37,551 nt of DNA from a virus (taxonomy: Duplodnaviria > Heunggongvirae > Uroviricota > Caudoviricetes): IMG/VR virus record IMGVR_UViG_2778261670_000003, one strand, 5' to 3'. Below, piece after piece: positions 4,202 through 15,427 of this stretch. Each line of letters opens with the position of its first letter. Position 1 is the first letter of the stretch. The notes below the pieces were generated by a model that was given only the letters and a program-made list of their open reading frames with translations, searched no databases and was not told the DNA's origin. The position numbers and the translations under genes were made by a program.

Positions 4202-4711
4202 ATGTTTGATTACCAAGTTTCCAAACATCCACATTTTGACGAAGCCTGTCGTGCATTCGCACTGCGCCACAACCTGGTGCAACTGGCAGAACGTGCAGGC
4301 ATGAATGTACAGATTCTGCGGAACAAGCTGAACCCAGCTCAACCTCATTTATTAACCGCACCAGAAATCTGGTTGCTTACCGATCTGACTGAAGATTCAA
4401 CGCTGGTAGATGGCTTTCTGGCACAGATTCACTGCCTGCCATGTGTACCGATTAATGAGGTGGCAAAAGAGAAACTGCCGCATTACGTCATGAGTGCAAC
4501 CGCAGAGATCGGGCGTGTTGCTGCAGGTGCGGTATCTGGCGATGTAAAAACCAGTGCAGGCCGTCGTGATGCGATCAGCAGCATTAACTCTGTTACACGA
4601 CTGATGGCGCTGGCCGCTGTTTCATTGCAGGCCCGTTTACAGGCTAATCCTGCGATGGCGAGTGCAGTTGATACAGTGACTGGCCTCGGTGCTTCATTCG
4701 GTTTGCTGTGA
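4202..4711 (+). CDS. cII: Phage regulatory protein CII-like (186 CII family)
   Basis: 169-aa product directly after apl/cox, as in 186-type phages. Confidence 0.7.
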
Positions 4712-4718
4712 GGTGCTT

Positions 4719-4919
4719 ATGCTGACGAAAGAACCATCATTTGCATCGCTGCTGGTAAAACAAAGCCCGGCAATGCACTACGGTCACGGCTGGATCATGG
4801 GTGAGGATGGTAAACGCTGGCATCCGTGCCGTTCACAAGATGAATTGCTGGCAGAACTATCTACGAAAAAACGGGGGAACAAATGGCTATTGAAGGCGCT
4901 GCGGCGACTGTTCCATTAA
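4719..4919 (+). CDS. Hypothetical small early protein (186 Fil-like position)
   Basis: GAGGTG SD at 4710-4715 then ATG at 4719. The ORF track start at 4689 is an upstream extension. Confidence 0.5.
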   Translation: MLTKEPSFASLLVKQSPAMHYGHGWIMGEDGKRWHPCRSQDELLAELSTKKRGNKWLLKALRRLFH

Positions 4920-5224
4920 GCCCCGGTGAACGCCTGAATGGACTTAATCACATTGCGGAGTTAAGGGCGAAAGTATTTGGCCTGAATATTGAGTCAGAGC
5001 TTGAGCGGTTTATTAAAGATATGCGTGATCCACGGGATATCAATAACGAACAAAATAAACGAGCACTGGCTGCCATATTCTTTATGGCAAAAATTCCAGC
5101 TGAACGTCATAGCATCAGCATTAATGAGCTGACCACTGACGAAAAGCGGGAGCTGATTAAAGCAATGAATCATTTTCGTGCAGTGGTGAGCTTATTTCCC
5201 AGACGGCTAACCATGCCGAATTAA
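4883..5224 (+). CDS. Hypothetical early protein
   Basis: GGGGGAA SD then ATG at 4883; 113 aa. Confidence 0.6.
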   Translation: MAIEGAAATVPLSPGERLNGLNHIAELRAKVFGLNIESELERFIKDMRDPRDINNEQNKRALAAIFFMAKIPAERHSISINELTTDEKRELIKAMNHFRAVVSLFPRRLTMPN

Positions 5225-5291
5225 CCAACTAATGAAATTAATGGCGTAAACCCGCCGGGCATCCCTTTATCTAAATACAGGAGAATTGATT

Positions 5292-5525
5292 ATGCGTAAT
5301 ATTGAAACCCTCACGACTAAAACCGGACCGGATGACGCAGGGCTTAATATTTTACTGACAGAGGCTCGTCTGGAAGAACGCCGGGCAAGGGCTGAAGCAA
5401 TGGCAGCTCGCCTTGATCGCCTGGCGTGTCATATCACATCCCGCCAGTTAAACCACGTCGAAGCGGCAGAACTGCTGCGTGTGACTGCTGAAGCAATCCA
5501 GAACGAAGCGCAGGAGATCCACTGA
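5292..5525 (+). CDS. Hypothetical early protein
   Basis: AGGAGA SD at 5278-5283, ATG at 5292. The ORF track begins at a TTG at 5286. Confidence 0.55.
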   Translation: MRNIETLTTKTGPDDAGLNILLTEARLEERRARAEAMAARLDRLACHITSRQLNHVEAAELLRVTAEAIQNEAQEIH

Positions 5526-5752
5526 TGGCTGATGCAATGGATCTCGTACAGCAGCGAGTTGAAGAAGAACGCCAACGTCATATCCGTGCTGCCCGTGCCA
5601 AAACGCCGGGCGTGTCCCGCGTGCTTTGCGTTGAGTGCGAAGCGCCAATTCCGCCAGCACGCCGTCGTGCCATTCCGGGTGTGCAGCTTTGCATTACCTG
5701 TCAGGAAATCGCAGAGCTGAAAGGCAAACATTACAACGGAGGTGCTGTATGA
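5525..5752 (+). CDS. TraR/DksA-family C4 zinc-finger protein
   Basis: CVECEAPIP…CITCQ four-cysteine motif in a 75-aa protein. Common in P2-like early regions. Confidence 0.75.
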   Translation: MADAMDLVQQRVEEERQRHIRAARAKTPGVSRVLCVECEAPIPPARRRAIPGVQLCITCQEIAELKGKHYNGGAV

Positions 5753-6606
5753 GCACCATCCTGAAATGGGCGGGAAATAAAACCGCCATAATGTCCGAAC
5801 TGAAAAAGCATCTTCCTGCTGGCCCGCGACTGGTTGAACCTTTCGCGGGATCCTGTGCAGTGATGATGGAGACGGATTACCCTAGCTATCTTGTTGCGGA
5901 TATTAATCCTGATTTAATCAACCTCTATAAAAAGGTTGCTGCTGATTGTGAGGCGTTTATATCTCGTGCCAGAGCTTTATTTGAGGAAGCAAACAGGGAG
6001 GTGGCTTATTACAACATAAGGCAGGAGTTTAATTACTCCACTGAAATTACTGATTTCATGAAAGCGGTATATTTTCTGTATCTCAATCGTCATGGTTACC
6101 GTGGGTTATGTCGCTATAACAAGAGCGGGTATTTCAACATTCCCTACGGTAATTATAAAAATCCGTATTTCCCTGAAAAAGAAATTCGCGCATTTGCAGA
6201 GAAAGCCCAGCGAGCAACGTTTATCTGCGCCAGCTTTGATGAAACGCTGGCGATGCTGCAGGTGGGGGATGTGGTGTATTGCGATCCGCCTTATGACGGT
6301 ACGTTTTCCGGTTATCACACTGACGGCTTCACTGAAGATGACCAGTATCACCTGGCATCTGTTCTTGAATATCGATCATCAGAAGGTCATCCAGTCATTG
6401 TTTCTAACAGTGACACATCCCTGATCCGTTCGCTGTATCGAAATTTCACTCACCACTACATCAAGGCAAAACGCAGCATCGGCGTGTCGGCTGGCGAGAG
6501 TAAATCTGCAACAGAAATCATTGCTGTTTCCGGAGCGCGCTGCTGGGTGGGATTTGATCCTTCGTGTGGCGTGGATAGTTCTGCTGTGTACGAGGTGCGC
6601 GTATGA
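5749..6606 (+). CDS. dam: DNA adenine methyltransferase (Dam family, N6-adenine)
   Basis: N-terminal LKWAGNK, FAGS motif and catalytic DPPY motif. ATG at 5749 overlaps the previous stop (ATGA). The ORF track start at 5635 is an out-of-context N-terminal extension. Confidence 0.9.
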
Positions 6607-9017
6607 GTCATGACGATATGAGCAACTCTAGCGGCTTTAACGAGGCCGCTGCAGCATTTTCATGGAACGGCCCGAAAAAGGCCATTAACCCTTATCTGGA
6701 CCCGGCGGAAGTTGCGCCGGAGTCTGCACTTTCAAACCTGATCACTCTGTACGCTGCCGATAATGAGCAGGAACAGCTGCGCCGCGATGCACTGAGTGAG
6801 CAGGTCTGGGAGCGTTATTTCTTTAATGAATCCCGTGATCCTGTCCAGCGCGAAATGGAGCAGGATAAGCTCATTAGCCGGGCAAAGCTGGCGCATGAGC
6901 AGCAGCGTTTTAATCCAGACATGGTCATTCTGGCTGACGTCAACGCCCAACCTTCCCATATCAGCAAGCCGCTGATGCAACGTATTGAATACTTCAGCAG
7001 CCTGGGCAGGCCAAAGGCTTATTCTCGCTATTTGCGTGAGACGATTAAGCCATGTCTGGAACGACTGGAGCATGTACGCGACAGTCAGCTATCCACTTCT
7101 TTTCGCTTTATGGCAAGCCATGAAGGGCTGGACGGCCTGCTGATCCTGCCTGAAATGAGTCAGGATCAGGTGAAACGCCTGTCTACCCTTGTCGCTGCGC
7201 ATATGAGCATGTGTCTTGATGCCGCTTGTGGTGATTTGTACGCCACCGATGATGTTAAGCCAGAAGAAATCCGCAAGACATGGGAAAAGGTGGCAGCGGA
7301 AACCCTACGTTTGGATGTCATCCCGCCTGCGTTTGAGCAACTCCGTCGGAAAAGAAACCGCCGTAAACCAGTGCCCTATGAACTCATTCCGGGCTCGCTG
7401 GCGCGTATGCTGTGCGCCGACTGGTGGTATCGGAAATTGTGGAAGATGCGTTGCGAATGGCGGGAAGAGCAGTTGCGTGCTGTCTGCCTGGTCAGCAAAA
7501 AAGCATCTCCCTATGTCAGCTATGAAGCTGTGATGCATAAACGTGAGCAGCGCCGTAAGTCGCTGGAGTTTTTCCGTTCTCATGAACTGGTGAACGAAGA
7601 CGGAGACGCGCTGGATATGGAAGATGTGGTAAACGCCAGCTGCAGCAACCCGGCGCATCGCCGCAATGAGATGATGGCCTGTGTTAAAGGTCTGGAGCTT
7701 ATCGCGGAAATGCGCGGTGACTGCGCCGTTTTCTACACCATTACCTGTCCGTCACGTTTCCATTCCACGCTCAATAACGGCAGACCCAACCCGACCTGGA
7801 AAAACGCGACGGTAAGACAAAGCAGCGATTATCTGGTCGGTATGTTTGCTGCATTTCGTAAGGCGATGCACAAAGCCGGGTTGCGCTGGTATGGCGTGCG
7901 GGTGGCTGAGCCGCATCACGACGGCACAGTTCACTGGCACCTGTTGTGTTTCATGCGCAAAAAAGACCGCCGCGCCATTACTGCATTGTTGCGTAAGTTT
8001 GCTATCCGTGAAGACCGCGAGGAGCTGGGCAATAACACTGGGCCGCGCTTTAAGTCTGAGTTGATTAACCCGCGCAAAGGTACGCCAACAAGCTACATCG
8101 CGAAATACATCAGTAAGAACATTGACGGGCGTGGTCTGGCTGGCGAGATCAGCAAGGAAACGGGGAAATCCCTGCGTGATAATGCTGAATACGTTAATGC
8201 CTGGGCGTCTCTGCATCGTGTTCAGCAATTCCGCTTCTTTGGCATTCCGGGGCGTCAGGCTTACCGTGAACTGCGATTGCTGGCTGGTCAGGCGGCAAGG
8301 CAACAGGGGGACAAAAAAGCAGGTGCGCCGGTACTGGATAACCCGCGCCTTGATGCAATCCTGGCTGCTGCTGATGCTGGTTGTTTTGCCACCTACATCA
8401 TGAAGCAGGGCGGCGTACTGGTTCCCCGCAAATATCACCTGATCAGAACCGCTTATGAAATCAACGAAGAGCCGACCGCCTATGGCGATCACGGCATTCG
8501 TATTTATGGCATCTGGTCACCCATTGCAGAGGGCAAGATCTGCACTCATGCAGTGAAGTGGAAAATGGTTCGTAAGGCCGTTGACGTTCAGGAGGCGGCA
8601 GCCGACCAGGGCGCTTGCGCCTCTTGGACTCGTGGCAATAACTGTCCCCTTGCTGAAAATTTAAACCAACAAGGGAAAGACAAATCAGCTGATGGGGACT
8701 CCAGAACGGATATTACCCGTATGAATGACAAGGAGTTGCACGATTACCTGCACAGTATGAGCAAAAAAGAGCGCCGGGAACTGGCTGCAAGGTTACGCCA
8801 GGTGAAACCGAAACGGCGTAAAGACTACAAACAGCGAATTACAGACCATCAGCGACAGCAGCTCGTCTATGAACTGAAGTCTAGGGGATTTGATGGCAGC
8901 GAGAAAGAAGTCGATTTGCTCCTTCGCGGCGGCAGTATTCCGTCAGGAGCAGGCCTGCGTATCTTCTATCGGAACCAGCGTCTGAAGGAAGATGATAAGT
9001 GGCGGAACCTGTATTAA
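6603..9017 (+). CDS. Replication initiation endonuclease (P2 gpA-like rolling-circle initiator)
   Basis: 804-aa product with HUH-type VHWHLL motif. Position downstream of early genes as in P2/186. Confidence 0.9.
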
Positions 9018-9109
9018 TTACGCGGGTTAACAATTCGTGCTCTTAATAATACCAGGCATATCAGGCCGATGAACGTAAAAAAACGTTTTACATCAGTAAG
9101 ATTATTATA

Positions 9110-9129
9110 TACTGTAAATATAAACAGTG
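9110..9129. promoter_or_regulatory. LexA (SOS) box TACTGTAAATATAAACAGTG
   Basis: CTGT-N8-ACAG with an AT-rich spacer, about 40 nt upstream of the 9170 ORF. A second degenerate half-site follows at about 9127-9146. Confidence 0.6.
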
Positions 9130-9169
9130 GTTATGTATACAGTATTGTTTTGGTGTCATAGGAGGAAAG

Positions 9170-9358
9170 ATGCAGGACTATTTTTTGGAGTCTTTGAAGC
9201 TCCAGCGCATTGATTTTTTTCTTAAGCTTGTAGCGGCTAGTGAGTGTAGTGATGAAGAGAAGGGGCTGGCTCTGCAGTGGGTTTCTGAATTGACTGATGA
9301 ACTCATGGCAAAAATCAGAAGCCACGAATACAACCGCTCAATGGATGTCATCAGCTGA
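9170..9358 (+). CDS. Small hypothetical protein, first ORF of SOS-controlled module (Tum-like N-terminal part?)
   Basis: Strong GGAGG SD at 9161-9165, ATG at 9170; 62 aa. Confidence 0.5.
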   Translation: MQDYFLESLKLQRIDFFLKLVAASECSDEEKGLALQWVSELTDELMAKIRSHEYNRSMDVIS

Positions 9359-9368
9359 GGTGACTTTT

Positions 9369-9602
9369 ATGCGCATTGAAATAATGATCGATAAAGAGCA
9401 GAAGATTAGCCAGTCTACCCTGGACGCCCTTGAATCCGAGCTTTACCGCAATCTGCGCCCCCTGTATCCCAAAACGGTAATTCGCATTCGCAAAGGTAGC
9501 TCTAACGGTGTGGAACTAACCGGACTGCAACTGGATGAAGAAAGAAAACAAGTGATGAAAATTATGCAGAAGGTGTGGGAGGACGACAGCTGGCTGCATT
9601 AA
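9369..9602 (+). CDS. dinI: DinI-family protein (186 Tum-like C-terminal antirepressor domain)
   Basis: 77-aa product MRIEIMIDKEQ…, similar in length and pattern to E. coli DinI (MRIEVTIAK…). GAGGTG SD upstream. LexA box upstream. Confidence 0.8.
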   Translation: MRIEIMIDKEQKISQSTLDALESELYRNLRPLYPKTVIRIRKGSSNGVELTGLQLDEERKQVMKIMQKVWEDDSWLH

Positions 9603-9610
9603 GAAACGTT

Positions 9611-9640
9611 GCCCCCAGGAGGATTCATTCTGATGGGGGC
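9611..9640 (+). terminator. GC-rich hairpin (GCCCCCA-16nt-TGGGGGC) after dinI-like gene
   Basis: Seen directly; weak T-tract (tagttt) follows. Confidence 0.3.
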
Positions 9641-9800
9641 TAGTTTGGGCAATGAGTGAAATAAGGCGTAAGGTGGGCGGTTATTTTGATAAGTGATCGT
9701 CCGCTTTGTGTCAGAAGCAGAAGCAGAAGTGGGAGTGTCTGAGACTCTCTAAAAGTTGATGATTCACTTACAAAACCATTTTCCTGATGGATGCTTACAC

Positions 9801-10136
9801 TTACGAATGATTATTCTGTTTAGTCTTCATGAGAAAATCCCGAATCTTTGCCAAGTTTGAGTTTTCGGGGATTGAATCCATGTACGGATCACGCTCAAAC
9901 ACTAATTGCTCAGATTCAACGAAAGCCTGCCACTCTACTGGGTCTAGCTCAAATCCCATTGCTGTCATATCACTTTCATCTTCCCCCTCGATCCAGTGGA
10001 CTAAATAAAACAATTCATCATCAGGAGAATCATCCTCACCATCGACAATATCAACATCGGTTACAGTGATACGTAGGGTGGGATCGATTTTTGAGACATA
10101 AATTCCTAACTGTGGTATAGGGGGAATATTGTTCAT
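9801..10136 (-). CDS. Small highly acidic protein (111 aa), unknown function
   Basis: AGGAG SD 5 nt upstream of ATG at 10136. Very D/E-rich (DGEDDSPDDE, EGEDESD). Divergent from the retron. Confidence 0.7.
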   Translation of the reverse strand: MNNIPPIPQLGIYVSKIDPTLRITVTDVDIVDGEDDSPDDELFYLVHWIEGEDESDMTAMGFELDPVEWQAFVESEQLVFERDPYMDSIPENSNLAKIRDFLMKTKQNNHS

Positions 10137-10588
10137 GGAAACTCCTTTTATTGGTGCTTGCTATTTGAATAAAAATACGCCAAACAGAGTGTTAACTGTG
10201 AATATGGAAAGAATCGTTGTAAGTACCCCGCTTAGGTGTCCCATTCTATTTTAGAGGTTCTCGTGCATATGGATTATGTTATCTGAAAGTTAACTTCCGC
10301 TTCCCGTTCACAGCGAACATTCATCTTTGTAAACCCGTATGATCCGTTTTTCAAGTGGCCATTCAGATACGGATTTTCACTTCCTTGACAGTGCATGACT
10401 ATGCTGCATGAAATCGCATGATCGATTGAGGATCGTCTTTGCTCAGATCCGCCAGAACTGGCGGGCTTTTGCTCATGTCATGCATGTGCATGAAAACCAC
10501 TGCATAAAGCGGGCAGGCGTGGCGGGGATACGAGCGCGCGCTGAGCTGCATTCACTTGAATAATCCGTATGTTAGTGCTAGCCTAGCT

Positions 10589-10743
10589 GTGCCCTTAGCA
10601 GGAAAGTACATTCAATATGTTACTTTCTAGTGGTTGGTGTTTAGCCAACTCGTATGGATTGCTTGGTATCTCGACACAAGTTAGCCTTGTGTCATTTATA
10701 GACACCAGGCTAACTTGTGTCTCGGGAACTCTTGTATGGGCAT
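10589..10743 (+). ncRNA. Candidate retron msr-msd non-coding RNA (boundaries approximate)
   Basis: Ec86-like GTGCCCTTA-G motif at 10589-10598 (candidate a1 plus branching G). Imperfect complement TATGGGCAT at 10735-10743 (candidate a2). Two msr-like stem-loops at 10602-10627 and 10632-10647. A perfect 14-bp inverted repeat with nested hairpin at 10673-10721 is msd-like. Lies directly upstream of the effector and RT on the same strand. Confidence 0.4.
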
Positions 10744-11669
10744 TAATTGTTATGTGGTTTAAACATCCTAGATATTTACGAGCAAAAGAAAATTTTATTT
10801 CAAGTTTTTTTCCAAGTAACTTGAATTCTTTTAATTATATCCTGCCAAAAGTATTATTTATTTGTGGAGGAGATGAGACTTATTGTTCAAATAGAGGGAT
10901 GCTGGAAAAATATATTGCTAAGCATCATAAAGAATTTGTTACTTTTCGAGCAGAATTAGCATGGGACGTAATTAGCAATTTAGGAACTCATAGTAATGTG
11001 AATGCGTTATCACTTGAAGAATGGCTTGCGGATTTTTCTGATGTGGTAATTATTCTCGTAGAGAGTTATGGCACTGTAGCTGAATTGGGCGCATTTTCAT
11101 TAAGTCCTGTTTTACGTAAAAAACTTCTTCCTATATTAGATAAAAAGTTTGAAAGTCATAAGTCATTTATCAATACAGGGCCCGTAAAATGGGTTGATAG
11201 TGAATCCAAATTTGGCCCTACAATCTATACTGAATTTGAGACAATTTTAACGTGTATGCCTAAAATAAATGAAAGGCTAAATAGGAAAGTTCAATCAAAC
11301 ATAACTAATACAAATTCAATAGGTGATTACAAATATTCACCAAAAATTTTTTTATTTTTTGTGCTCGTTGTTATATCTTCTTTAGGTCCAATAACAATTC
11401 CTGAGATTATTAATATCACAGGTAGGTTGATAAATTATAAAATTAATAAAAATATTTCATTTGTTGTTTCTATTGGAGTTGCTCTTGGGATTTTTAAGGA
11501 AAGTCGATTTGAGGGCGTGACCCATTATTCATGTGTCGATTATATTAAATTTTTTAATCATGAAAAGATGAAAGATTTAGTTGAAAGTATTCAACGAAGT
11601 AGAGCTAGATCATTATCCGATTTAATAATGATATCTAAATTCAAAGCAGAATTAGAAAGGATCATGTGA
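10617..11669 (+). CDS. Retron effector, nucleoside 2-deoxyribosyltransferase-like (NDT-like) with C-terminal hydrophobic segments
   Basis: ESYGTVAELGA resembles the NDT catalytic-glutamate motif, after a beta-strand-like KVLFICGG. Two C-terminal hydrophobic stretches. AT-rich. The 10617 ATG has an AGGAAA SD but lies inside a predicted RNA hairpin; the true start may be ATG 10752, just after the candidate a2. Confidence 0.7.
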   Translation: MLLSSGWCLANSYGLLGISTQVSLVSFIDTRLTCVSGTLVWALIVMWFKHPRYLRAKENFISSFFPSNLNSFNYILPKVLFICGGDETYCSNRGMLEKYIAKHHKEFVTFRAELAWDVISNLGTHSNVNALSLEEWLADFSDVVIILVESYGTVAELGAFSLSPVLRKKLLPILDKKFESHKSFINTGPVKWVDSESKFGPTIYTEFETILTCMPKINERLNRKVQSNITNTNSIGDYKYSPKIFLFFVLVVISSLGPITIPEIINITGRLINYKINKNISFVVSIGVALGIFKESRFEGVTHYSCVDYIKFFNHEKMKDLVESIQRSRARSLSDLIMISKFKAELERIM

Positions 11670-11670
11670 T

Positions 11671-12600
11671 ATGTTAATTGAGTATCTAGCTAAAGTTTTA
11701 CTGTTAGAAGCTGATTTTATATTAAAAGTTGCAAATGATGCTAACTCGCATTATGGTAAATTTTCTGTACCTAAAAAAGGCGGTGGGACAAGAATCGTCT
11801 ATCAGCCCTCTAAAGAATTAAAAGTTTTGCAGAGATTACTTCATGATAATGTTCTGTCGAAATTGCCGATTCATCCAAATGCTGTAGCATATCAGCAGGG
11901 TTCATCAGTGTTCAAACATGCAAGCATTCACAAAGCTAAACGTTTTATGCTTAAGATGGACTTTGAAGGTTTTTTTGATTCAATTAAGGAAAGTGATGTT
12001 GAGAGATTTATAAACGACAACAAGCATTTCTTCAGTGATGATTGGTCAAAGGATGATACTGATTTGCTGGTAAAAATAGTATGCTTTAACGGGAGACTGA
12101 CTATGGGTGCTGTTAGTTCCCCTGTGGTAAGCAATGCTATATGCTATGAATTAGATCATATATTGAATGAATTTTGTCTTTCAAAAGGTGTAACATATAC
12201 ACGCTATGCTGATGATATGTACTTCTCAACAAACGAAGAAAATGTATTGAAGCAAATACCACCTTTTTTACGCTCGAATTTAAAAACTTTAAAATACCCA
12301 TCAAAACTATGGATTAATAGAAAAAAGACACTGCATATGTCAAAGAAAAATAAAATGATGGTTACGGGTGTGACTTTGACAACAGATGGTGGAGTATCCT
12401 TAGGGAGAGATAAAAAAAGGATGGTTAAATCGCTTATTTTTAAATGGGAGGCTCTTGATGAGAAGAAAAGGCTATTTCTTCAAGGATATTTATCGTATTG
12501 CAAAAGTGTTGAGCCATTATTTATTAATAGGCTTTGTGCGAAATATTCATCAGAGCTGATTGATGAAATCCAGAGATATCAACCTGAAGTATCAGAATAA
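11671..12600 (+). CDS. Retron-type reverse transcriptase
   Basis: Motifs VYQPSKELKVLQ, LKMDFEGFFDSI, YTRYADDMYFS (YADD catalytic) and MVTGVTLT (retron VTG motif) align with Ec86 RT as I recall it. 309 aa, the typical retron RT size. Confidence 0.9.
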   Translation: MLIEYLAKVLLLEADFILKVANDANSHYGKFSVPKKGGGTRIVYQPSKELKVLQRLLHDNVLSKLPIHPNAVAYQQGSSVFKHASIHKAKRFMLKMDFEGFFDSIKESDVERFINDNKHFFSDDWSKDDTDLLVKIVCFNGRLTMGAVSSPVVSNAICYELDHILNEFCLSKGVTYTRYADDMYFSTNEENVLKQIPPFLRSNLKTLKYPSKLWINRKKTLHMSKKNKMMVTGVTLTTDGGVSLGRDKKRMVKSLIFKWEALDEKKRLFLQGYLSYCKSVEPLFINRLCAKYSSELIDEIQRYQPEVSE

Positions 12601-12606
12601 CGTGTG

Positions 12607-12637
12607 TGCGCATGAAAATTTCCATGCGCATTTTCTT
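12607..12637 (+). terminator. Rho-independent terminator (TGCGCATG-8nt-CATGCGCA then TTTTCTT) after the RT gene
   Basis: Perfect 8-bp stem followed by a T-run; sits between convergent RT and portal genes. Confidence 0.6.
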
Positions 12638-13661
12638 AAAAACAGTAGTCATTAAATGAAATAATTTCTTTTCCAGCCCAGTTATTCAGTGATTCAAAAT
12701 TCTTTTGCAATGGCATTAACTCATTCCGCACAAACACTTTGCTTGCCTTCTCCACATCCCCAAATCCCCCAACATTATTAGGCATAATCCCCATCATCTG
12801 CGGCGGCACGCGGTGTGCCGCCATCATGTCATCGCGACTAACATTTTTGATATTCAAAAACTCATCCTTCGCCGCGACTTCTGACAATGGGATGATCTGA
12901 AGCCCGTCTTTTTTGCCGTTAGGCGAGTACATAAACAGGTTGCGGAAGTTGCCTGGCCCTTTGGCGCTTTTCATCGCGTTGCGGAGGTTGTTCACATCCT
13001 CCTGGTTCTGAGCGGCATCGGTCATGTACATTATGAATCCTGCATGGCTGCCATTAATATAATATTTGCGTCGGAACAGCGTGGCGGACTCGTTGAGCAG
13101 GGCTGACGGAATGGCAGAAAGATAACCGGGCAGGCCGTAGATCTCCTGGTTGATATCGGGTTCCATCAGATGAAAGATGCTGCCTTTCGTGAACTGATAC
13201 GGCTGGGTTGTCATACTGTATTGCACAAACCAGTAGGTATCCAGGTCTAACCCGCGTCGGGTGTATTTTGCCAGTGCAGGCTCAAGGGCGATAACTTCAC
13301 CGAAGCGGTTCGTGCGTTTCTCCAGGTAGGCGTTACCAAAAACCAGATAGTCCTGCACAAAACGCGAAAAAGCCTGCTGGCTGAGCAGCGGGTGAGGGAT
13401 GTAGGTGCTGGTCAGAATGTTGCACTTCACTGCAATCGGTGAGCTGTGATGCACGGCGGCGCGGAAGGTTCGCGCCAGTCCGTCGAAACTCACAGGCGGC
13501 TCATACCAACGATCCATCTGTACGCATTCCACATAGTCCAGCAGTTCGCGGCGGTCCAGAACAGGAACGGGATCACCGAAGCTGAATGCTTCGGCTGAAG
13601 TTTGGTTTTTATGCTGGATCTGATTCGTCGCCGCAGCGCGTTTTTTCTTACTCTTTCCCAT
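12636..13661 (-). CDS. Portal protein (P2 gpQ-like)
   Basis: 341-aa product, size and position match P2 Q. ATG at 13661; the ORF track begins one codon earlier at a TTG. Confidence 0.9.
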   Translation of the reverse strand: MGKSKKKRAAATNQIQHKNQTSAEAFSFGDPVPVLDRRELLDYVECVQMDRWYEPPVSFDGLARTFRAAVHHSSPIAVKCNILTSTYIPHPLLSQQAFSRFVQDYLVFGNAYLEKRTNRFGEVIALEPALAKYTRRGLDLDTYWFVQYSMTTQPYQFTKGSIFHLMEPDINQEIYGLPGYLSAIPSALLNESATLFRRKYYINGSHAGFIMYMTDAAQNQEDVNNLRNAMKSAKGPGNFRNLFMYSPNGKKDGLQIIPLSEVAAKDEFLNIKNVSRDDMMAAHRVPPQMMGIMPNNVGGFGDVEKASKVFVRNELMPLQKNFESLNNWAGKEIISFNDYCF

Positions 13662-15427
13662 CAAAAAATCTCCACAATATTGCTGGTATTGGCGGACTCG
13701 CCCTGCAGCGGTTCGTTAAACAGTGCGTGCATGGTTGCCCAGGCCAGATCGGCATGGCTGGCTTCTTCGCTGCGGCTGGCTTCATAGGTCGGGCGGTTGC
13801 CGCTGGCGGTGGTGGCGCGACGGATTGCCATAAATGACTGCGCTATGTCGGTGTGTCCGGCGTCAAACTCCAGACGGCGGTGACTGATAATGTCGTAGGC
13901 CTTGAGTACCAGGGCGTTTTTAACGTTGGGGTTGTAGACAAACTCCCGGACGGCTGGAAAAAACGCTTTCACGTTCTCGTAAACCCCGTGGCCGACACCT
14001 GTCGAGTCGATGCCGATGTAGGTCACGTTGTACTGCTCGGTCAGTTTTTTGATGGCGTCAGCCTGGGCGCGGAAGTCCATCCCGCGCCACTGGTGACGCT
14101 CAAGAATGCGGAACTTGCCGCCCGGCACGGCTGGCGGTGCCACCACCACGCATCCGGCGCTGTCGCCGTTCTGCGTACCTTTGGCCGGGTCATAACCGAT
14201 CCACACTTCGCGCCAGCCAAACGGGCGCAGTGCCAGTGCATGAAAGTCGGTCCAGACTTCCCAGCTGTCCACCATGCACGCCTGCAGCTCGCTGAGCGGG
14301 AACACGGACGCGAGATCGTCCACGAACTCGCACATCAGCAGGTTTTGGTATTCGTCCGGGCTGTACTCCATGCGTAGCTGGTCGAGGTCGAACAGGTTAC
14401 AGCCGCCGCGCACCGCATCTTCCACGGTGACTATCTGGCGGTATTGCCCGTCAGCGCACAGCAGGCCGGGGGCCAGGTTGTTGTGGGACAGGTCGATGTC
14501 CACCTTATCGGCTTTGTTGCGTCCACGGTTGAACAGCGCACCGGACCAGAACGGATAAGCACTGTGGGTCAGGCTGGATGGCGTGGAAAAATAGGTTTGT
14601 CGCCATTTTTTGTGAATAGCCATACCGGAAGCCACTTTGCGCAGCTCCTGGAATTTCGGTATCCAGAAATATTCATCCAGATACAGGTTGCCGTGGTAAC
14701 TCTGGGCCGTGCGGGCATTGGTGCCGAGGAAGTAAAGCGTGGCCCCGTTAGGAAGCACCATCGGATCGCCTTTCAGCTCCACCTCCACTTCTTTGGCGAA
14801 GTCGATGATGTACTGCTTAAAGACGTGGGCCTGTGCCTTACTGGCGGAAAGGAAAATCTGGTTACGCCCGGTAAGCAGGGCGTCAATCAGGGCTTCACGG
14901 GCAAAGTAAAAGGTCGCGCCGATCTGGCGTGACTTCAGCAGGTTGCGGATGCGGTTGGTTTTTCCGGCTTCCCACCAGTGGCGCTGGTAGTTGAACATGG
15001 AGGAATGGAAGATTTCTTCCAGCTTCTCAATCTGCTCATCGGTGAAAACATTCTTTTCCGGCTGACGGCGTGGGCCTTTGTTGCGGTTGGCGACGTTAGG
15101 GTTTAAGTCGGCTTCGTTGCCGCCATTGTTAAACTTGCCGATCCGCGCGTGGCGCTCCGACTGGCGCGCCAGCAGGTCAATCTCTTTGAAATCTTTCCCT
15201 TCTTTGTGCTCCTTCATGATGAGCTGGCAGTAGCGTGCGGCGGTGGTGAGCTGCATCTGATCCAGCGGCCCATAGTCACCCCACTTGTCGCGTTTTTTCC
15301 AGCTGTGAACGGTTGCAACTTTCTCGCCCAGCATTTCAGCTATGCGGGCTACGCGGTATCCCTGAAAGTACAGCAGCATGGCCTGCCGACGGGGATCGAG
15401 ATCTGCGGGTGTCAGTGTGGTGTTCAT
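13661..15427 (-). CDS. Terminase large (ATPase) subunit (P2 gpP-like)
   Basis: 588 aa, co-oriented with portal. P2 P is about 590 aa. Confidence 0.9.
   Translation of the reverse strand: MNTTLTPADLDPRRQAMLLYFQGYRVARIAEMLGEKVATVHSWKKRDKWGDYGPLDQMQLTTAARYCQLIMKEHKEGKDFKEIDLLARQSERHARIGKFNNGGNEADLNPNVANRNKGPRRQPEKNVFTDEQIEKLEEIFHSSMFNYQRHWWEAGKTNRIRNLLKSRQIGATFYFAREALIDALLTGRNQIFLSASKAQAHVFKQYIIDFAKEVEVELKGDPMVLPNGATLYFLGTNARTAQSYHGNLYLDEYFWIPKFQELRKVASGMAIHKKWRQTYFSTPSSLTHSAYPFWSGALFNRGRNKADKVDIDLSHNNLAPGLLCADGQYRQIVTVEDAVRGGCNLFDLDQLRMEYSPDEYQNLLMCEFVDDLASVFPLSELQACMVDSWEVWTDFHALALRPFGWREVWIGYDPAKGTQNGDSAGCVVVAPPAVPGGKFRILERHQWRGMDFRAQADAIKKLTEQYNVTYIGIDSTGVGHGVYENVKAFFPAVREFVYNPNVKNALVLKAYDIISHRRLEFDAGHTDIAQSFMAIRRATTASGNRPTYEASRSEEASHADLAWATMHALFNEPLQGESANTSNIVEIF

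Follow-up and report, generated by a model that had tools for sequence, protein, structure and literature searches.

A retron RNA gene annotated as the N-terminus of an effector in a probable Sen2/St85-type cassette of a P2-like Escherichia coli prophage

In a P2-like prophage of Escherichia coli, the effector gene of a putative retron is annotated with a start codon, ATG 10617, that lies within a series of inverted repeats, raising the question of whether the first 45 codons of this gene encode protein or belong to a retron RNA. The prophage is the virus record IMGVR_UViG_2778261670_000003, and its whole stretch of 37,551 nucleotides, referred to as the window, was analyzed here. A preliminary description made from the DNA letters had proposed a non-coding RNA (ncRNA) like that of the retron Ec86 at this position, with the effector starting at ATG 10752 instead. 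Our analysis identifies 10589-10743 on the plus strand as the msr-msd RNA gene of a retron, and the comparisons of homologous loci place the effector start at ATG 10752; the buried start codon stems from misannotation rather than from biology. The RefSeq effector, which starts at ATG 10617 and has 350 amino acids in E. coli and in a Klebsiella phage alike, is about 45 codons too long because the RNA gene was read as its N-terminus. The region 10545-12640 very probably constitutes a complete retron cassette of the Sen2/St85 kind (type II-A1) in a variable hotspot of the prophage, with the RNA gene, the effector gene and the reverse transcriptase (RT) gene in this order on the plus strand (Table 1).

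Three features characterize the RNA gene as that of a retron: the inverted repeats a1 and a2 bracketing the msr-msd region, the predicted branching G located 3' of a1, and msr stem-loops together with a long msd hairpin. When 10585-10748 (164 nucleotides) was folded, the minimum-energy structure was the one that the preliminary description had drawn, with -65.8 kcal/mol versus -39.6 ± 4.1 kcal/mol for shuffled sequences (z = -6.4), and none of 200 shuffles was as stable. As had been proposed, a1 pairs with a2 at eight of nine positions including one G.U (10589/10743), and the ninth is a U.U mismatch (10595/10737). The first msr hairpin consists of 10 base pairs and a 1-nucleotide bulge and does enclose the annotated ATG 10617, which is inside its stem. 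The second hairpin, GTTGG-N7-CCAAC, is also present, although it is located at 10633-10649 and not at 10632-10647 as first described, and with wobble pairs it comprises seven base pairs (10632-10638 / 10644-10650). The perfect 14-base-pair repeat reported for the msd (10673-10686 / 10708-10721) lies inside a larger inverted repeat of 21-nucleotide arms (10673-10693 / 10701-10721) with a 7-nucleotide loop, which is 95% complementary and has a single mismatch, T10688.C10706. The two arms of this hairpin are each close to a palindrome, GACACAAG-N5-CTTGTGTC, so the msd could alternatively fold as two short hairpins; the same ACACAAG-N5-CTTGTGT pattern was seen by eye in the msd of an Amphritea locus (L009).

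For comparison, we used 25 loci from other species, with sources including Yersinia, Pantoea, Pectobacterium, Amphritea, Vibrio, Shewanella, Colwellia, Geomesophilobacter and Acidobacteriota, and two further loci, L028 and L029. The ncRNA bounds in these loci were set from TAG...TA anchors and verified by folding. Folded singly, all 25 extracted ncRNAs yield one common architecture, which runs from 5' to 3' as a1, hairpin 1 with its variable sequence, hairpin 2 (GGTTGGTGTATAGCCGACC), the ATTG linker, a long hairpin variable in sequence and length, and GTAAGG, with a1 and a2 forming the closing stem. In a 17-locus alignment (A3), the TAG ending a1, parts of hairpin 2, the TTG of the linker and the GTA starting a2 are invariant, and in a second alignment (A7) the linker is invariant as T-G. 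When the base pairs of the window were projected onto the 17-locus alignment, 80.4% of the cells were standard pairs versus 35-50% with the partners slid by one to three columns; 36 of the 47 pairs have changed on both sides, and none of 500 shuffles reached any of the observed measures. The folding and covariance check across homologous loci that had been suggested with the preliminary description finds conserved pairing.

Compensatory changes are abundant. In the 7-base-pair core of a1/a2, five pairs show them (for example CCCTTA/TAAGGG, CTCCTA/TAGGAG and TCTTTTA/TAAAAGA) and the remaining two never vary; the two outer pairs counted in the preliminary description are not conserved across the family, only the seven inner pairs are. 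All nine pairs of the main helix of msr hairpin 1 (helix 2 of the alignment) have compensatory changes, its sequence varying and its structure being kept, and so do 18 of the 21 pairs of the msd hairpin across the family. Among the nearest relatives, T10590-A10742 is replaced by A-T and the U.U of 10595/10737 by U-A, and in the msd stem of L029, T10682/A10712 is replaced by G/C. Together with the z score of the fold, this architecture recurring with compensatory changes in related loci implies that the retron-like structure is more than chance. RNAalifold, applied to the full-length alignment, recovers the 7-base-pair a1/a2 stem (10591-10597 / 10735-10741), the base of hairpin 1 and hairpin 2; the msd hairpin was not recovered from this MAFFT alignment because the msd varies too much in length for MAFFT, and it was assessed by the pair projection and by the single-sequence folds. 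A covariance model was built from 19 loci, leaving out the window, L028 and L029; it was limited to the msr part, a2 being shifted by one column in six of the aligned sequences. Searched against the 37.5-kb window, it gave a single match, at 10587-10667 on the plus strand (63 bits, E ~1e-10), with hairpin 2 as the core of the match, and on Ec86 it found the true msr weakly (16 bits).

The promoter in front of the RNA gene is also real and conserved, judging from its alignment in 11 loci. The preliminary description had placed TTGAAT-N18-TAGCCT at 10555-10584; the promoter stands, but its spacer is 17 nucleotides and its first base is 10556, and a TG at 10576-10577 extends the -10 element. In all 11 loci, this element ends 13 nucleotides before the branching G, and the transcript would start at about 10590-10592, which fits the seven conserved base pairs of a1. 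A generic sigma-70 scan did not list the retron promoter because its -10 hexamer TAGCCT is weak, with three of six matches.

The effector start at ATG 10752, with the preceding 45 codons being RNA gene, was part of the preliminary description and is borne out by the starts of homologues and by the substitution pattern. Among the best 120 of 324 effector homologues, nearly all have 305-316 amino acids, covering 87% of the query; the aligned homologues begin with MW(F)KHP, which corresponds to ATG 10752, and the matches to the effector family models start at residues 57 and 76 of the 350-amino-acid version. Reading upstream from the conserved start, the frame stays open for 0 codons in L003 and L006, where a stop codon directly precedes the start, for four codons in L008 and for 15 codons in L029. 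In L029, which is also in a P2-like phage and has an effector 80% identical to that of the window, the segment corresponding to 10617-10751 has 1-nucleotide and 4-nucleotide deletions that break the frame, and its 14 substitutions are distributed 7/4/3 by codon position, as opposed to 54/30/156 in the effector coding sequence. Relative to L028, about three substitutions are found in 10617-10751 versus 136 in the adjacent coding sequence, 107 of them at third positions. The absence of a third-position bias, the frame-breaking indels and the few changes relative to L028 show that the segment is constrained as nucleotides, not as protein. Conservation of 10617-10751 at the amino-acid rather than at the base-pairing level, which would have spoken against the RNA gene, was looked for and the opposite was seen. 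It could nevertheless be argued that the 350-amino-acid effector is real and translated from ATG 10617, with the segment being template and coding sequence at once, as in type VI hybrid RNA. Type VI retrons are a precedent for coding sequence inside a retron RNA, the frame of 10617-10751 is open not only in the window but also in L028 and the copies from E. coli and the Klebsiella phage, a 3-nucleotide deletion in L028 preserves it, and AGGAAAG is located 10 nucleotides upstream of ATG 10617. However, the extension is missing from almost all homologues and from the family models, the frame is broken in L029 and closed by stops in L003, L006 and L008, the nucleotides are far more conserved than the neighboring synonymous sites, and the ATG itself is within the stem of msr hairpin 1. 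A conserved coding sequence inside the structured RNA, the feature of type VI hybrid RNAs, was not found here, the open reading frame 10617-10751 not being conserved among the loci. We therefore consider translation from ATG 10617 highly improbable and take 10752 as the predicted start.

A number of observations weigh against a complete and working retron. In addition to the weak -10 hexamer, ATG 10752 is not preceded by a good Shine-Dalgarno element, the RT lacks an exact NAxxH motif and has HASIH in the expected region, an Rfam scan of 9000-13000 gave chance-level matches only (E ~0.8-5, far below the gathering scores), and the transcript start, the branch point, the msDNA (multicopy single-stranded DNA) ends and the trigger are all predicted. 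Among the 17 aligned loci, moreover, the internal U.U of a1/a2 is seen in the window and L028 only. This mismatch, the weak promoter and the weak ribosome-binding site might mean that the RNA gene has decayed, with little or no msDNA being made and the cassette being a relic; the change in a2 from TAAGGG to TATGGG would also weaken the Shine-Dalgarno-like element, and in the copy of E. coli A37 (L002) the effector has three 1-nucleotide deletions (equivalent to 11118, 11439 and 11448). The A37 effector is annotated as a truncated hypothetical protein, which could reflect toxin inactivation or assembly errors. Decay is nonetheless unlikely, as the window has an intact, full-length effector gene and RT gene, a1/a2 retains six of its seven core pairs, and the RNA gene is identical in the examined E. 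coli copies (L001, L002) and in Klebsiella phage 4LV2017. In L028, too, it has hardly changed, despite a 15% difference in the adjacent coding sequence, and such identity or near-identity next to diverged coding sequence implies purifying selection. Because terminators can also be long perfect hairpins and the region is between phage modules, the inverted repeats might be imagined to have no part in reverse transcription and to act as a terminator or regulatory hairpin of the phage. We give this almost no credence: the msd hairpin is not followed by a T-run, the a1-G...G-a2 frame co-occurs with an RT and an effector in several bacterial phyla and outside phage contexts, and the msr part is matched by the family covariance model. 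The msr-msd RNA gene of a retron is the interpretation that we retain.

Table 1. Features of the retron cassette in the window (position 1 is the first base of the window).
Feature	Position	Strand	Remarks
-35 hexamer TTGAAT	10556-10561	+	TT in all and TTGA in most of 11 aligned loci; fixed distance to -10
Extended -10 element TGcTAGCCT	10576-10584	+	TGnTAnnnT nearly invariant in 11 loci
Inverted repeat a1, GTGCCCTTA	10589-10597	+	Pairs with 10735-10743; conserved core 10591-10597
Predicted branching (priming) G	10598	+	Directly 3' of a1; TAG invariant in 17- and 19-locus alignments
msr stem-loop 1	10602-10627	+	GAAAGTACAT (10602-10611) with ATGTTACTTTC (10617-10627)
msr stem-loop 2, GGTTGGTGTTTAGCCAACT	10632-10650	+	Most conserved part of the family; 97.5% of cells paired
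Conserved ATTG in linker	10658-10661	+	Just 5' of the predicted reverse-transcription stop
Predicted msd template	10664-10733	+	msDNA is the reverse complement; 3' limit is the base before the opposing G
msd long hairpin	10673-10721	+	21-nucleotide arms 10673-10693 / 10701-10721, 7-nucleotide loop
CCAGG (CCTGG in the msDNA stem)	10705-10709	+	Dcm-type methylation motif; holds the only mismatch of the stem
Opposing G	10734	+	Immediately 5' of a2; invariant in 17 loci
Inverted repeat a2, TATGGGCAT	10735-10743	+	Core 10735-10741
Effector gene, corrected predicted start	10752-11669	+	305 amino acids; NDT-like, St85/STM3845 family
Retron RT gene	11671-12600	+	309 amino acids
Terminator-like hairpin and T-run	12606-12641	+	Hairpin 12606-12631; closes the retron operon

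The proteins of the cassette indicate what kind of retron it is. The RT matches RVT_1 (6e-23), RT_II-A of PADLOC (5e-105) and retron_St85_RT of NCBIfam (2e-97), the family models matching over the full length, and has YADD at residue 179 and VTG at residue 231. The second-best PADLOC model after RT_II-A is RT_I-A, and the closest solved RTs are of the Ec78/Ec83 type (1e-44 to 1e-54), with the Ec86 RT at 5e-32; the named ones among the closest range from 1e-44 to 1e-49, and a chain titled only 'Retron' (22et_A) is higher, at 6e-54. The effector matches NDT_II-A of PADLOC (8.6e-54) and the NCBIfam equivalog STM3845_fam (1.1e-52, 179.5 bits versus a cut-off of 100). In the classification of Mestre et al., Sen2 (St85), Eco3 (Ec73) and Vch2 (Vc81) are type II-A1 and Ec86 is II-A3, and type II-A1 is characterized by an NDT-like effector, an RT clade shared with I-A and a common I-A/II-A1 RNA structure (PMC7736814); the gene order of RNA gene, effector and RT is that of Sen2, Eco3, Vch2 and Vmi1 (PMC11701397). 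In the window, we find an STM3845-family effector, this same gene order, and an RT that the best models and the nearest solved RTs place in the clade shared with I-A, and on these sequence matches we assign the element to the Sen2/St85 (II-A1) kind. The Ec86 lineage (II-A3) was considered and rejected, as the RT is 31% identical to that of Ec86 and the gene order differs.

The comparison with the named retrons, in which Sen2 and Ec73 were compared by their descriptions, places the element as follows. Sen2, Eco3, Vch2 and Vmi1 (Retron-Vmi1 is Vm85) share with it the order msr-msd, effector, RT, an NDT-like St85/STM3845 effector and an RT of the St85 model, and Vm85 has two RNA stem-loops and a promoter a few bases upstream of the msr, as the window element does (PMC11701397). 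The msDNAs of these retrons are 85, 73 and 81 nucleotides long, whereas about 70 nucleotides are predicted here, and the msd sequence differs; Sen2 msDNA has GATC, whereas the msDNA stem of the window has CCTGG. Whereas the window element is in a P2-like prophage hotspot, Sen2 is found on the chromosome and Ec73 on a P4-like element. The closest named solved RTs are those of Eco7 (Ec78) and Ec83, which are type I-A; the a1:a2 helix of Eco7 ends with the branching G set across from an opposing G, as predicted here, G10734 being equivalent to G127 of Eco7 (PMC12673091), but the effectors of Eco7 and Ec83 are a PtuA ATPase and a PtuB HNH nuclease, unlike the NDT-like effector of the window. As for Ec86 (Retron-Eco1), whose RNA sequence we confirmed by exact match in E. 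coli B strains, it has the same CCCTTA-G at the end of a1 and the same ATTG before the reverse-transcription stop, and is found in the same P2 hotspot. Its NDT-like N-domain is 42% identical over the N-terminal 116 amino acids only, the C-terminal half not being detectably similar, its gene order is effector, ncRNA, RT and not ncRNA, effector, RT, and a MAFFT alignment of the window RNA with that of Ec86 is unreliable beyond a1. The elements that the preliminary description called Ec86-like are thus present, but a special likeness to Ec86 is limited to CCCTTA-G and a weak similarity of the msr; the element would function much as Ec86 does and has its CCCTTA-G, yet belongs to the Sen2/St85 kind.

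The cassette is located between replication gene A (6603-9017) and the portal and large terminase genes (12636-15427, minus strand). This P2 locus is a hotspot that holds retrons (Rousset et al., PMC9122126), and Ec86 in E. coli B occupies the same slot with identical flanking genes. A 2.25-kb query containing the cassette has 99-100% identical copies in eight of 5426 complete E. coli genomes, and its first 144-145 bases alone are common to more than 1,200 E. coli genomes, suggesting that the variable cargo starts at about 10545. The same retron is carried by Klebsiella phage 4LV2017 and its relatives, with a 98.7% identical effector. A second copy of the cassette (99.6% identical) is found in strain Combat13F7 at 4504-6762 of NZ_CP019246.1, a separate 45-kb record in which the effector alone is annotated; it could be an extrachromosomal P2-like element or an assembly artefact.

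From these elements, we propose how the retron might operate. The operon transcript would start near 10590, and pairing of a1 with a2 would set G10598 opposite G10734. The RT would prime from the 2'-OH of G10598 and copy the msd from 10733 back to about 10664, stopping just past the conserved ATTG; the geometry of the branching and opposing G, the 2'-OH priming and the termination of the RT are known from retron biochemistry and the Eco7 structure (PMC12673091). In Ec86, the last templated base is 3-4 nucleotides after the G of ATTG, and this rule, applied to the window, predicts the stop at about 10664 and an msDNA of 69-71 nucleotides. After removal of the template by RNase H, a branched msDNA of about 70 nucleotides with a 20-base-pair DNA stem would remain; as DNA, the predicted molecule folds into a 20-base-pair hairpin with one 1x1 loop (-21.5 kcal/mol, z = -8.7). 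The RT and msDNA of Sen2 are the antitoxin of the toxin RcaT (bioRxiv 10.1101/2020.06.22.160168), and by analogy we infer that the RT and msDNA would neutralize the effector here, and the NDT-like toxin would stay inactive until the msDNA is altered by a phage factor. The freed toxin would then abort the infection. The solved Ec86 effector is an N-glycosidase that hydrolyzes NAD(P)+ (PMC12673091).

The msDNA stem offers a candidate for the site at which such a phage factor may act. Its single mismatch (T10688.C10706) is the G at the fourth base of a CCTGG in the predicted msDNA, and in Ec86 msDNA, where CCTGGT pairs with ACAAGG, this G likewise sits in a 1x1 loop (L031 2573-2657). Methylation of the Ec86 CCTGG by phage Dcm activates defence, and mutation of the motif abolishes it (bioRxiv 10.1101/2023.08.16.553469), while Sen2 is triggered by Dam methylating GATC in the msDNA hairpin (bioRxiv 10.1101/2020.06.22.160242). 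By analogy, the trigger of the window retron would most plausibly be a Dcm-type cytosine methylase acting on the CCTGG of the stem. The resemblance to Ec86 was noticed post hoc and could be a coincidence. L028 and L029 retain the CCTGG motif. In its place, the enterobacterial sisters L003-L008 each carry one GATC, present on just one arm of the stem (which arm varies among the loci), and in L004 and L008, the two stems checked by hand, a mismatch is within the GATC duplex. A tentative and rather doubtful extension is that trigger specificity resides in a one-armed methylase motif containing the stem mismatch, with this lineage having acquired the CCTGG/G.A site of the distantly related Ec86 and its enterobacterial sisters carrying a one-armed GATC at the equivalent place, as in Sen2, which senses Dam. 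If this were true, the sensor site would move or converge between retron clades independently of the RT and the msr, and the trigger would be predictable from sequence.

The spacing of the genes bears on their translation. In 13 of 23 loci, the best Shine-Dalgarno-like element located 4-10 nucleotides before the effector start is the core of a2 (GUAAGGG or UAGGAG), and pairing of a1 with a2 would consequently mask the ribosome-binding site of the toxin. The loci with a2 at least 26 nucleotides upstream mostly have a separate Shine-Dalgarno-like element closer to the start, and in the window a2 is, as such an element, a weakened TATGGG compared with TAAGGG in the relatives. Translational control by retron RNA is known for type VI retrons. 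The effector stop and the RT start are one base apart (11667-11673), and this separation by a single base suggests that toxin and RT are translationally coupled. In E. coli B, the annotated effector gene of Ec86 (L031 1591-2514) overlaps the first 14 bases of the ncRNA (2501-2670), implying that an effector packed tightly against a retron RNA gene is not unique to the window.

In summary, the preliminary description was right in all its main points, and its coordinates have been sharpened; what it describes is an ordinary retron RNA gene of the Sen2/St85 kind that had not been delimited before, and the general understanding of retrons is unchanged by it. For the annotation, about 45 residues at the N-terminus of WP_192827751.1 (E. 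coli) and of YP_009789833.1 (Klebsiella phage 4LV2017) are spurious, having been read from the retron RNA gene, which is itself not annotated; if the effector were cloned or modeled as annotated, it would gain a false leader and the ncRNA would be cut. A fully delimited II-A1 cassette is now directly clonable for defence studies or as a template donor for editing, and the CCTGG-with-mismatch site that it shares with Ec86 predicts a specific trigger, which would be a phage cytosine methylase.

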